A stretch of 14,327 nt of DNA, from assembly GCA_038279365.1 (NCBI GenBank), contig JAYODI010000113.1:1-14327 (forward strand). Direction: 5' to 3'. Of the stretch, positions 6,001 to 9,000 are shown piece by piece; within the stretch, counting starts at the first letter, position 1, and each line of letters opens with the position of its first letter. The position numbers were made by a program. This stretch comes from Candidatus Latescibacterota bacterium (GTDB taxonomy: Bacteria > Latescibacterota > UBA2968).

Positions 6001-9000
6001 TCGGATGGCAATGGTGTTATTAGCGGGGCATTTTTATTTAGCATCAACAATCAGCCCGCGCAACGCGGTTTGATTGAGCTGACCTATACATCCGATGGTT
6101 CCATATGGCGCAAAACCAATAACGTTCGCATTGTGCAAACAGATATAGAAGCCATTACACTGATTGCCAATGTGCACGACAGTGAAAGTGGCTTGCCCCT
6201 ACAAAACGTGGCTGTTGAAGCACGACGCCCTGATGGAGTGCGCACATCCAGAATCGTTCGCACAGATGAATTTGGTGTGGCAACCTTAGAAGTTTTGGCT
6301 GGTGATTTTGAAATTGTGGTTGATCACCCCAATTTTCAACCCATTTCGCTGACCACCATCCGTGCAGATATGGCACAAGTAAAAATAGAAGACATTAAAC
6401 TTGCACCCATTAACAAACTGATTCGCACACCTTAAAAAAATAGCGTTCATTAGAACGCCCCGGTGGGTAGTGATTGATTGAACCCTTTCCTTCTACCCAT
6501 CCTTTAGAGGACGCCCGGTTGCCCGACTGGGGGTCCTCTTTTTTATAAAAAAAGCACACCCTTGTGGTGTGCTTTTTGTTTGAGGCCCTGCATAATAGGT
6601 ATTCGCAATTAAAACCTTTTATGCACGAAAATATGAGCTGGGATTGCCGTGTGGTGGAATGCGGCTAAAGGCATCGTCATTGGCAAGCGTCATGGCAATG
6701 CCCAAAGGTGCGGCATCGGTATCGTCACAGCGCATATTAAATGTGGTGCCTCCCCACCGTGTGCCAACCACCAACACATCAAAACGCGTAAACCGTTCTT
6801 GAATGCGATCAAATGCAAGGTGACCTAAAATGTGGGGTTCAAAACCACGCTCTTCCACCAAGCAACACATCTGCCCGCGTCGATACACCGAACGCGAAGG
6901 CGGTTGAATACACCACGATCCACTTTCTTGAAGCTTACCCCCACCGTGTAGCGTCATATAAACATGATCCATATCCACATCGGTTACCAACAATTCCAGT
7001 GCCACATCTTGTGGCACATCTTTGGGCCAAGGGGGTGTTTCGCCACGCACAATGTCTAACATGTGATAACGAACCAGACGCCGATGAATGGCCTCGGGCA
7101 GTGAAAAACGATCGCCCTTTTGAACGCCCTCAGGTACAATAGATAACATCTCTTCACGTGTTAACCATACAAAGTCTTGATTGTGTGCCAAGCGTTGATA
7201 ATCGCCATCGGGGCGTGTATCAATTTTGCGGGGCAAATCGGTACAGCCCAAGTGCAACACCAGCCCATCTTCGGGATAATGCCAAACATATTTGGTATCG
7301 CGGGAAAAGTCGCCAATTTGAGACACATCTTTTTGCGTGGTGCGGTTGTCCCAATTGCTCAGTGCTTGATGGAGCATTGCAAGCAACTCATCGGGATCGG
7401 CTGTGTGACGCGAGCCCAACAACTCTCCCTCAATGGTTGCTACAAATTGCCCTTGATGACATTCACCGTGATCGGTTTGCGCCATTTTTGCAAGGGCTTC
7501 ATCAAATGAAAGCTTGAACCGGCCTTGTAATGCAATGAGGCGAAAACAGCGGCCTTCTTCGTCATCTTGTCGTTGTAAACTGTTAATATCAATCGCAGCT
7601 GTTACAAACCGTTCGTTTAACAGTTGGATAATGCGTGGGTCAGAGTATGTGCGCTCACGGCGCACAACACCATTGTTTCAGACACAGCCAACGGGGTGGC
7701 CATTCATTGCCCATAAAAAAAGCGGTTTGTTTTCTTGGGCAGATCGTTGACGGGCAGGCCAAAACTCGGTTTCCCACTGAATTTCTGTCCAACGCTCTGT
7801 TTGGGGTTTGGGCAAACATTGGGCAAATACTGCATCAAACGTATCTAATGTTACCTCTGGTGGTGGGTTTTGTATGATATCGTTGTACATCCAATTACTC
7901 CTTTTAAGAAAACTGTCGCAGGTCTGCAAGTCGCAGGTCAGAATCTTTAAGTCTTTGTTTTTTGACCTGCTGACTTGTGACTTGATTTATTTATCTTCTA
8001 AAAGCTCTTCGGAATATGCAAACAATGCTGGTGTACCTCCTGTGTGCACAAATACAACCGTTTCATCTGGTCCAATATCCCCTTTTTGTATGAGGTCTAT
8101 TAAACCAGCCATCGTTTTTCCCGTGTAGATAGGCTCCAATAAAATGCCTTCTTTTTCGGCCATCAAACGCACAGCCGCATTGCCTTTTGCAGTACAATAC
8201 CCATATCCTTCTTCACCCACATAGGCACTGGTGTTCTCAATATCAGAAACATCAAATGACAAGTCCACACCCAAAATATCCGACATTTTGTTCAACACAC
8301 TTAAAAAAGCGGTTTGAATATCATAAGACCACACGATTGGGGCAATGCCCATAATGCGTGTGTCTATGCCCAACATTTTTTTGCCAAAAATCAAACCGGG
8401 TTGTGTACAACTTCCCGAGCATAAAATAATGGTTGTTGGTTTTTTACCCAATGCTTCACACTGTTCTAAGATCTCTGCCATACACAATGCGTATCCCATT
8501 GCACCATAAGGACGGTTGGCTTTTTGCATGACGGTGAACGGTTTGCGCCCTTCACGTGTGAGCCGGTTGACCAAAGCATCTTTGGCTTCATCTAAAAGCT
8601 CTTGTGTTTCGACATCGATCATATCTACCGAAGCACCAAACAAATCGTCTAACAAAAGATTGCCTTGTGTTGTGCCACTTTTATGATCTTTCACCATTGC
8701 CAGGGCACAATCTACACCCAGCTTGGCGGCAGCGGCTGAAAGCTGTCGACAGTGATTGGATTGAGAACCTGCCCCACCTATGAGCACATCGGCACCGCGT
8801 TCCAAGCCTTGTGCAATTGTAAACTCCAGTTGCCGTGTTTTGTTGCCACCAAAAGCCAAACCTGTGCAATCATCGCGTTTGATAAAAATTTCGGGACCAC
8901 CCAAGGCCTCGCTTAATCTTGGACAACATTCTAATGGGGTTGGCAAATGCCCCAACTTTACACGTGGTAATTTGCCAATGTGCGCACGTAAATCTAAAAT

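Follow-up and report, generated by a model that had tools for sequence, protein, structure and literature searches.

Proteins of the DsbD-gamma, Thioredox_DsbH (DUF255, PF03190), Thioredoxin_7, AGR, and UAS kind share a thioredoxin fold in which helix 1 carries the reactive residue at its N-terminal end. Selenoproteins with a Cys-x-Sec (C-x-U) pair have also been catalogued, including the rhodanese-like form 3 (NF041203), the UshA-like protein (NF041198), ferredoxin-thioredoxin reductase (NF041072), and thioredoxin-like Sec.1 (PF13192) (PMC13188914 Table 1). The published criteria for a bSECIS hairpin are a loop of 3–9 nt with a G within the first two positions, a stem of 4–16 bp, a distance of 16–37 nt from the UGA to the loop, and an MFE of −7.5 kcal/mol or lower (PMC13188914 section 5).

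The window analysed here is a stretch of 14,327 nt from a Candidatus Latescibacterota bacterium (contig JAYODI010000113.1). One gene of this window, which is split at a TGA codon in public databases, most likely encodes a single 423-residue Sec protein with a thioredoxin-like redox domain. According to the predicted model, it has the same fold as the DsbD-gamma/DsbH/AGR/UAS group, with the reactive residue in the same place; however, it has no CxxC motif, the position of the second Cys is occupied by Gly (U-N-N-G), a five-residue insert (GHPxG) lies ahead of the site, the partner Cys precedes the reactive residue instead of following it, and a 228-residue beta-barrel domain is added. With the catalogued NF041203, NF041198, NF041072, and PF13192 proteins, it has in common the Cys-x-Sec spacing and a presumed redox chemistry, whereas their folds and domain make-up are unlike those of the window protein. 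Taken as a whole, with the fold and the redox role included, the explanation of 6619–7890(−) as one gene for a cytoplasmic 423-residue selenoprotein is, in our estimate, very probable. The features of the locus are as follows:

6619–7890, minus strand: selenoprotein gene, from ATG 7890 to TAA 6619–6621; 423 aa, Sec at residue 71.
7927–7929, minus strand: TTG, an earlier start that would give 436 aa and U84; probably not the start.
7898–7903, minus strand: AAGGAG, a putative ribosome-binding site located 7 nt upstream of ATG 7890, read from the sequence.
7684–7686, minus strand: Cys69 codon (C of C-x-U), the proposed resolving cysteine; Cys in most TGA loci.
7678–7680, minus strand: TGA probably read as selenocysteine (U71), judging by the frame and the conservation among loci.
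7644–7671, minus strand: SECIS-like hairpin, upper stem 7660–7665/7649–7654, loop CGUGA at 7655–7659.
7667–7671 with 7644–7648, minus strand: weaker lower stem of the SECIS-like hairpin, from the fold.
7336–7806, minus strand: predicted thioredoxin-fold domain, residues ~29–185; the TGA is inside it, between beta1 and alpha1.
6622–7305, minus strand: predicted C-terminal beta-rich, barrel-like domain, residues 196–423, with no clear solved relative.

The TGA at 7678–7680(−) is in frame and joins an ORF of 83 aa (7678–7929) to an ORF of 348 aa (6619–7665); the in-frame codon described in the first-pass annotation of this DNA is thus confirmed. Read-through gives the motif WAMNGHPVGCVUNNG. The RNA-library contigs said to bridge the TGA were also found: contigs of two RNA libraries (X15, 7301–7872; X16, 7362–7711) span the codon, which is unchanged in them. 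The start is another matter, since the length of 436 aa with Sec at residue 84 had been counted from TTG 7929. Judging by the sequence, ATG 7890 is the more likely start, giving 423 aa and U71, because AAGGAG lies 7 nt upstream of it and the first ATG is found 67–72 codons ahead of U in 24 of the 29 loci. The alignment of the relatives begins at about ATG 7890 and not at TTG 7929, and inspection of the sequence upstream of TTG 7929 revealed no ribosome-binding site. No hydrophobic stretch can be noted by eye in the N-terminus that starts from ATG 7890.

The conservation of a single TGA was reproduced in full. Exactly one TGA is present in all 46 site-spanning matches, which come from 42 of the 61 related genomes; three further partial matches stop short of the site and are outside the 46. 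The codon is TGA in 76 of 77 GTDB species-representative loci, whose identity to the window protein is as low as 27%, and, among metagenome loci retrieved by searching with a Cys form, in 22 of 25, the other three having TGC. The in-frame TGA is kept across several phylum labels. In 30/30 loci, the TGA occupies the same alignment column, 29 of them with C-x-U and one (L031) with S-x-U. Cys stands two residues before Sec in 68 of the 72 TGA loci of the wider set, the remaining four having A or G; overall, this position is S, A, or G in five loci, and the motif His is N or D in many. The motif WAMNGHPxGCxU-NNG, described previously as invariant, is thus not strictly so. Over the 48 codons upstream of the TGA, the differences at codon positions 1, 2, and 3 number 432, 361, and 942 in 29 loci, and 3, 1, and 23 in the closest relative. 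By this measure, coding selection acts on the frame ahead of the TGA.

The hairpin begins 12 nt past the TGA and has a 6-bp stem, with 18 nt from the UGA to the loop. The loop CGUGA has 5 nt, with G second and U after it; folding yields −13.3 kcal/mol. The loop, stem, spacing, and MFE all satisfy the published bSECIS criteria (PMC13188914), and an MFE of −7.5 kcal/mol or lower was obtained for 17 of 18 distinct hairpins. Across 67 distinct sequences, pairing at the hairpin holds in 97.3% of the 402 cells, compared with only 20.6–55.5% in slid control registers. Four of the six pairs vary on both sides, and none of 500 shuffles equals the observed pairing, which bears out the compensatory changes reported earlier. 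Synonymous sites hardly vary there: the five third-codon positions within the hairpin have an entropy of 0–0.19 bits; for the adjacent ones, the values are 1.79–1.89 bits. When the 66 nt around the TGA were folded singly, their stability was no better than that of shuffles (z −0.28); the case for the hairpin therefore relies on covariation and not on energy. As a negative control, the Cys forms gave no discrimination. The TGC loci L133, L134, and L157 keep the hairpin register in 6/6, 6/6, and 5/6 pairs, so that all three retain the hairpin and it is not exclusive to the TGA forms. This may be explained either by a leftover SECIS or by a partial constraint imposed by the conserved peptide. The Rfam scan of the whole window gave 0 matches at the gathering score.

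The Sec machinery was confirmed at the place given in the first-pass annotation: selA, selB, selD, and tRNA-Sec are located together on contig C34 of the same genome, all above curated cut-offs. The tRNA-Sec has the anticodon TCA, selD itself contains one TGA, and the reading of selA and selB is free of internal stops. Of the 42 genomes bearing the gene, 41 have selA, and the remaining genome is 80% complete; selA is found in 57 of the 61 relatives overall, so that finding it together with the gene tells little. The ribosome would decode UGA 7678–7680 as selenocysteine, and the hairpin would recruit SelB and Sec-tRNA(Sec). Sec decoding of this UGA is well supported, by evidence that is comparative throughout: both the decoding components and the RNA signal were found, and they point to the act of insertion. 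The tests of Sec decoding applied here, namely the TGA, the hairpin, coding selection, the machinery, the Cys forms, and the fold, were all positive and support it.

The joined protein was modelled as a single unit with a pLDDT of 92.6 and a pTM of 0.91. Its N-terminal domain is predicted to have a thioredoxin fold, with a beta-alpha-beta-alpha-beta-beta-alpha core and the reactive residue at the start of helix 1. The predicted domain was compared using VIA-align and was also searched with Foldseek. The VIA-align Z scores are 12.6 (3f9u), 11.4 (2lst), 11.2 (AGR3, 3ph9), 10.3 (3ira), and 10.1 (DsbH, 2ju5), and 9.3 (2dlx) and 9.0 (2ec4) against UAS domains; many thioredoxins match the N-terminal domain at Z 12.6 to 7. 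Profile alignment places U over the first Cys of CHWC (3ira), CVNC (3f9u), and CQYS (3ph9). The model supports a single thioredoxin fold that spans the TGA and needs both ORF parts. The C-terminal domain was modelled alone with a pLDDT of 94.3. A Foldseek search with it found nothing at E ≤ 0.001, and its best VIA-align Z of 6.5, with outer-membrane barrels, is inside the stated background of the tool, so no fold family is named.

Among 24 site-spanning homologues without the TGA, 12 have Cys at the Sec column. The C-x-C forms are P0069, P0089–P0093, P0120, P0121, P0207, and P0244. Of the Cys homologues named in the first-pass annotation (P0069, P0092, P0095, and P0109), P0069 and P0092 are indeed C-x-C forms, while neither P0095 nor P0109 reaches across the site. 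The other half of the non-TGA homologues have no Cys at the Sec column, which implies that the scaffold works also without redox chemistry. Fusions to Ser/Thr kinases (P0098, P0114, P0121, and P0187) and to FecR anti-sigma domains (P0176, P0208, and P0235) were found; most of the fused forms are without the redox pair, and the module in them probably only binds or senses. Some family members are exported.

In the predicted structure, a fold of the DsbD-gamma/DUF255/AGR/UAS kind, Sec71 would stand at the N-terminus of the first helix, where CxxC proteins have their attacking cysteine; the second cysteine of CxxC would be replaced by Gly, and a Cys would stand two residues before Sec. The role that we propose is that of a thiol oxidoreductase working through a selenol. 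Its selenolate would attack either a peroxide or an oxidised sulfur, for example in a disulfide or a sulfenic acid; a selenenylsulfide would next form with Cys69, to be reopened by a cellular thiol reductant, and the beta-barrel domain would hold the substrate. Given that S, A, or G replaces this Cys in five loci, a selenenylsulfide with it would not be essential everywhere. Such a protein would be an unusual variant of the thioredoxin fold, with Sec at the nucleophile position, the usual resolving Cys missing, and a Cys two residues ahead. No conserved neighbour pointing to a substrate was found in the 30 loci and nine distant loci. The upstream PLP enzyme (7987–9024) adjoins the gene in only 5 of 30 loci, four of them from close relatives, and 21 flanking ORFs of the nine distant loci revealed no recurring partner beyond common dehydrogenases.

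Public gene calls amount to taking the TGA as a real stop, with two genes or a broken gene at this place: 63 of the 95 clusters found (98 had been claimed earlier) and 65 of 150 representatives begin just behind the site. In the two-gene version, a peptide of 83 or 70 aa would be followed by a 348-aa protein from GTG 7665, a start codon that is on hand but has no visible ribosome-binding site. A broken gene, for its part, would not retain TGA in 46/46, 76/77, and 22/25 loci. Coding selection in the same frame is seen in the upstream part, the homologues without TGA run continuously through the site, and the modelled thioredoxin fold requires both parts; we therefore consider a real stop very improbable. 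Read-through of the UGA as Trp, Gly, or Cys, by an altered code or a near-cognate tRNA, would alone also account for a conserved in-frame TGA flanked by coding sequence. However, in 19 of 29 loci this very gene ends with TGA, which shows that the codon serves as a stop elsewhere in these organisms, and selA and selB contain no internal stops. The homologues have Cys at the column (among the 24 forms read, Trp is absent there, and the non-Cys residues are A, S, R, G, N, D, and Y), a covarying hairpin of SECIS geometry lies behind the codon, and the genome has the complete Sec machinery. Decoding as an amino acid other than Sec is thus scarcely credible, and insertion of Sec is the preferred reading of the codon.

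With Sec inserted, the C-x-U pair might still bind or sense a metal, a metalloid, or a reactive small molecule, the barrel being a signalling or binding part. The kinase and FecR anti-sigma fusions have the architecture of sensor modules, although the fused forms, being mostly without the pair, say little about the Sec forms. The redox pair is missing in many relatives, and a conserved His or Asn is located five residues ahead of Sec. A protein with an ArsR/SmtB-type DNA-binding domain is encoded two genes off in the window and in close relatives, but this neighbour is restricted to them. Sec sits exactly at the nucleophile position of the thioredoxin fold, and an oxidoreductase role is assumed for the majority of known selenoproteins with this fold (PMC13188914). 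A sensing role is therefore unlikely, yet deserves more weight than either of the other readings of the TGA, and the thiol oxidoreductase remains the preferred proposal.

Beyond the families compared above, a possible link to an animal protein can be considered. Selenoprotein N (SELENON) is an ER redox protein mutated in SEPN1-related myopathies. When the Cys homologue P0069 was used in a search by language-model features, a "Selenoprotein N" cluster came first (0.90; 190 of 256 features, unaligned), and the C-terminal part matched unnamed clusters only. The residues following Sec are presumably alike in SELENON and in the window family. SELENON is described as having a thioredoxin domain, a Cys adjacent to its Sec (SCUG), and an RNA element just downstream of the UGA (PMC12839072, PMC8967691); it is also described as an ER membrane protein with an EF-hand (PMC12839072), and the SEPN1 coding-region hairpin just after the UGA is named "SRE" (PMC8967691). 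The window protein would likewise be a thioredoxin-fold selenoprotein with an RNA hairpin after the UGA and a nearby Cys. However, it has C-x-U instead of C-U and lacks SCUG, and neither an EF-hand nor an N-terminal membrane anchor was found, as the Pfam scan gave no EF-hand and the N-terminus shows no hydrophobic stretch by eye.

Family profile searches revealed no SELENON among the matches, and none was found among the solved structures; a six-residue motif of human SELENON occurs in 0 of 289 collected proteins. The literature search found no paper describing a bacterial SELENON homologue, and the words "bacteria" and "homolog" are both absent from the 2026 SelN review. The feature match, the shared UAS/AGR fold class, and the presumed likeness of the residues after Sec suggest, tentatively and with slightly more doubt than confidence on our part, that the family is the prokaryotic counterpart of animal SELENON. 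That the SEPN1 "SRE" hairpin is a relic of a bacterial SECIS at the same place is much less likely. If the link to SELENON is true, the family would offer a soluble, tractable bacterial model for a human disease protein, and the thioredoxin-like Sec domain of SELENON would be of bacterial origin.

The family can still be called uncharacterised, as it was in the first-pass annotation: no curated model covers it at threshold, and the 2026 catalogue of 119 families or subfamilies (PMC13188914) has no fitting entry. NCBIfam gave 0 families at E ≤ 10 for the joined protein. The earlier statement of zero Pfam and NCBIfam families holds above the thresholds, but Pfam is not blank, its best match being Thioredox_DsbH (PF03190), whose score of 15 bits (E 0.025, residues 50–116 of the 436-aa reading) is below the cut-off of 27. 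With this score and without CxxC, the protein does not belong to PF03190; as for the catalogued C-x-U families, no curated model matches, this sub-threshold hit being the only one in Pfam. The family motifs are absent from two supplementary files of the GOS paper, and the hypothetical protein GOS_A of that paper is a different, short protein. Most likely, this is a widespread bacterial selenoprotein family, with the window protein as its founding example, that is absent from the published lists examined, which cover the literature in part.

A single-sequence search gave 492 representatives at E ≤ 1e-10 (1448 at E ≤ 0.001), and the earlier figure of 1007 at E ≤ 1e-10 was not reproduced. As had been noted, "hypothetical protein" is the name given to the public entries, which begin after the UGA. 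This truncation affects hundreds of entries, among them those of Latescibacterota, Planctomycetota, Poribacteria, and metagenomes from soil and the sea, and deprives them of the active site. They could be mended by a family model in which the Sec column is marked, and bacterial selenoproteomes would be enlarged by one widespread family. The existence of Sec, Cys, and redox-dead forms, some of them within kinases or anti-sigma factors, makes the family a good case for the transition from a catalytic module to a sensor.

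An 83-codon frame on the minus strand (7678-7929) is closed by the TGA at 7678-7680, and the same frame runs past it for 352 further codons, to the TAA at 6619-6621. Taken alone, the downstream part is recognised by the ORF finder as a 348-aa ORF with a GTG start at 7665; with the TGA read through, the site peptide is WAMNGHPVGCVUNNG. The first-pass annotation had described one gene for a selenoprotein of an uncharacterised family. This finding is real, and its interpretation is supported by the comparative evidence. Only the start requires a minor correction. An AAGGAG motif is located 7 nt upstream of ATG 7890, and 24 of 29 related loci have their first upstream-frame ATG 67-72 codons ahead of the TGA; therefore, ATG 7890 was taken as the start instead of TTG 7929, the start behind the 436 aa and U84 of the first-pass annotation. 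The gene is as follows:

6619-7890, minus strand: probable selenoprotein of 423 aa, Sec71 (U71) at TGA 7678-7680

In the 48 codons before the TGA, the differences from the window sequence summed over 29 loci number 432, 361, and 942 at codon positions 1, 2, and 3, and 3, 1, and 23 in the closest relative. This pattern indicates that the frame upstream of the TGA is very probably translated.

A genome search detected the gene in 42 of 61 related genomes. Each of the 46 site-spanning matches keeps exactly one TGA, as claimed earlier; three partial matches ending short of the site are outside this set. The TGA column is identical in the 30 loci fetched, 29 of which read C-x-U and one S-x-U. The latter (L031), in which Ser replaces the Cys of C-x-U, is one of the copies of genome G052. 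Paralogues are present in G052 (three matches, contig C1) and in G017, G026, and G056 (two each), and every copy has a TGA of its own. A GTDB scan, with one genome per species, gave 77 loci, titled in the records as Latescibacterota (32), Pirellulaceae (14), Candidatus Poribacteria (10), Gemmatimonadota or Gemmatimonas (6), other Planctomycetota (5), Phycisphaerae (3), Isosphaeraceae (1), Bacillota (1), and plain 'bacterium' (5); some titles are outdated bin labels, and one 'Gemmatimonadetes' record belongs to the window's own family. The TGA is at the site in 76 of these 77 loci (72 read together, L061, L069, L107, and L068, which is the same place as L038), a set biased toward Sec forms because the search patterns were built from them; in the remaining locus, L132, the contig end falls before the site. 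A metagenome scan seeded with Cys forms gave 25 loci, 22 with TGA and three with TGC. The gene's own terminator is TGA in 19 of 29 loci, so TGA also serves as a stop in these organisms.

A hairpin is located 12 nt 3' of the TGA, with a GUGCGC/GCGCAC stem (7660-7665 with 7649-7654) and a CGUGA loop, and is prolonged by a weaker lower stem. It agrees with the consensus bacterial SECIS of a 2026 review (PMC13188914, section 5): the apical loop is 5 nt (3-9 required), G is second in the loop and followed by U (G required within the first two positions), the upper stem is 6 bp (4-16), the UGA-to-loop distance is 18 nt (16-37), and the MFE is -13.3 kcal/mol (-7.5 or lower). An MFE of -7.5 or lower was obtained for 17 of 18 distinct hairpins. 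Folded alone, the 66-nt stretch of the window is no more stable than its shuffles (z -0.28), and the weight of the hairpin evidence lies in the comparison between loci rather than in single-sequence energy. In a set of 73 sequences, of which 67 are distinct, 97.3% of the 402 cells are standard-paired and four of the six pairs have changed on both sides. None of 500 shuffles reached the observed paired cells, two-sided-change cells, further pair types, or covariation score, and five reached the observed number of pairs with two-sided change. When the partner was slid by 1-3 columns as a control, 20.6-55.5% of cells paired; an 11-pair version of the hairpin is 90.2% paired in 30 loci. The encoded peptide varies together with the stem, which argues against the pairing being a by-product of a fixed peptide. 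Third-codon entropy at five positions within the hairpin is 0.11, 0, 0.19, 0, and 0.11 bits, and 1.89, 1.79, and 1.89 bits at the nearest positions outside it. The three TGC (Cys) loci, L133, L134, and L157, keep the hairpin register with 6/6, 6/6, and 5/6 pairs, so the hairpin is not restricted to TGA forms. In these loci, too few to settle the matter, it may be a remnant of a recent Sec-to-Cys change.

The Sec machinery is encoded on another contig of the source genome (G000), C34, where four components stand in a row at 31069-36920 (L001, L009, L017, and L022), as previously noted:

31069-32421: selA, 592 bits
32484-34364: selB, 379 bits
35750-36673: selD, 367 bits, one in-frame TGA
36827-36920: tRNA-Sec, 68 bits, anticodon TCA (ARAGORN)

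The in-frame TGA in selD makes it probable that the organism's selenophosphate synthetase is itself a selenoprotein. Both the signals and the machinery that Sec insertion needs are present. Co-occurrence of selA with the gene (41 of 42 gene-bearing genomes, the exception being G050, 80% complete) is weak evidence, since selA is found in nearly the entire clade (57 of 61 relatives). RNA-library contigs X15 (7301-7872) and X16 (7362-7711), from two libraries of different studies, do bridge the TGA unchanged, and the DNA contig X6 of a third study covers it likewise. X15 and X16 are contigs that possibly contain DNA, and they indicate presence, not translation.

Public entries are called 'hypothetical protein' wherever the source gives a name, and many are cut as described in the first-pass annotation: of the 95 clusters matched by the protein, 63 begin immediately after the Sec position and no more than six span the site. 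Among the 150 representatives listed, 65 begin there and 20 span it; at E cut-offs of 0.001, 1e-10, and 1e-30, the full scan counted 1448, 492, and 73 representatives, respectively. No curated family model is matched above threshold, Pfam giving only a sub-threshold match to the DsbH thioredoxin-fold group (Thioredox_DsbH/DUF255, PF03190) and NCBIfam (June 2026 release) nothing at E <= 10. None of the models in Table 1 of PMC13188914, which lists 119 selenoprotein families or subfamilies with model identifiers, matches the protein; the four C-x-U entries of this table are rhodanese, UshA-like, ferredoxin-thioredoxin reductase, and PF13192 proteins. The nine new families of deep-Sep, as PMC12013277 presents them, differ from this one, and its motifs are absent from two supplementary files of the GOS paper PMC2398784. 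Before the GOS_A entry, supplementary file 2 of that paper contains another marine selenoprotein, whose reactive site comes after a similar strand but has C-x-x-U spacing, by description a different thioredoxin-like family. The family appears to be absent from these three published lists, to which the claim of novelty is limited, and it most probably represents a new family among the bacterial selenoproteins that have a thioredoxin fold and a standard SECIS. It is notable for its size, systematic mis-annotation, unusual active-site layout, and possible tie to selenoprotein N.

The 423-aa protein was modelled with a 46-sequence alignment (pLDDT 92.6, pTM 0.91). Residues ~29-185 are predicted to form a thioredoxin fold, with VIA-align Z scores of 12.6 to 3f9u (DsbD-like domain), 11.4 to 2lst, 11.2 to AGR3 (3ph9), 10.3 to 3ira (DUF255 domain), 10.1 to DsbH (2ju5), and 9.3 and 9.0 to UAS domains; the Foldseek result is consistent with this. 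In a profile search against solved structures, the Sec column aligns to the first Cys of CHWC (3ira), CVNC (3f9u), and CQYS (3ph9), whereas the position of the second CxxC Cys is occupied here by Gly, preceded by a five-residue insert. In the model, the TGA lies between strand 57-62 and helix 72-79, so neither half-gene would be expected to fold alone. Residues 196-423, modelled separately (pLDDT 94.3), are predicted to be a beta-rich, barrel-like domain; its best VIA-align Z, 6.5, is not above background, and Foldseek found nothing at E <= 0.001.

A language-model feature search with the Cys homologue P0069 placed the eukaryotic cluster 'Selenoprotein N' first (score 0.90, 190 of 256 features in common). 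By the tool's figures this match, made without alignment, is a lead, not proof. The residues after Sec are presumably alike in animal selenoprotein N (SELENON) and this family, a likeness to which we give no weight as evidence. The barrel part alone retrieved only unnamed bacterial clusters in the same search. In SELENON, as described in PMC12839072 and PMC8967691, the thioredoxin domain carries an SCUG site, and an RNA element follows the UGA within the coding region; the literature searched on SELENON and its homologues describes no bacterial homologue.

We infer the chemistry of the Sec site as follows. The selenolate at the nucleophile position would attack a peroxide or oxidised sulfur, Cys69, two residues before Sec71, would then resolve the adduct as a selenenylsulfide, and this would be reduced by a cellular thiol system, with specificity provided by the barrel domain. 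Cys69 is replaced in five loci and, therefore, is not essential everywhere. A role of the Sec site in binding or sensing is a real rival to this redox reading, because many relatives are redox-dead and incorporated into sensors. Among 24 non-TGA homologues that span the site, ten have C-x-C, two have Cys at the Sec column only, and 12 have no Cys there. The module is found C-terminal to Ser/Thr kinase domains (P0098, P0114, P0121, and P0187) and to FecR domains of the anti-sigma type (P0176, P0208, and P0235), and once N-terminal to a PQQ-type beta-propeller (P0108). These fusions carry the whole two-domain module, and most have lost the Sec/Cys pair. By eye, several Cys or degenerate forms have signal-like hydrophobic N-termini; none is seen in the window protein or in its relatives with Sec.

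The gene neighbours of the selenoprotein loci give no pointer to function. In the window, they are the following:

4221-5453, plus strand: 410 aa, C-terminal ArsR/SmtB-type helix-turn-helix (residues 326-397) as the sole recognised part
5758-6435, plus strand: 225 aa, downstream of the selenoprotein gene on the opposite strand
7987-9024, minus strand: adjacent upstream gene, PLP enzyme of the D-cysteine desulfhydrase/ACC deaminase group
9215-10192: NAD-dependent epimerase
10305-11069: polysaccharide deacetylase
11108-12613, plus strand: sulfatase
12893-14200, plus strand: sulfatase, adjacent to the preceding one

The best model for the PLP enzyme is D-cysteate sulfo-lyase CuyA (305 bits vs. 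a cut-off of 450), and this gene adjoins the selenoprotein gene in five of 30 loci, the window's own included, all but one being close relatives. The first 320 residues of the ArsR/SmtB-type protein have no match; its gene is retained near the selenoprotein gene in close relatives. The 225-aa protein has an N-terminus that looks lipoprotein-like on inspection and a carboxypeptidase-regulatory-like domain that scores below threshold, and its gene is retained in the two closest relatives only.
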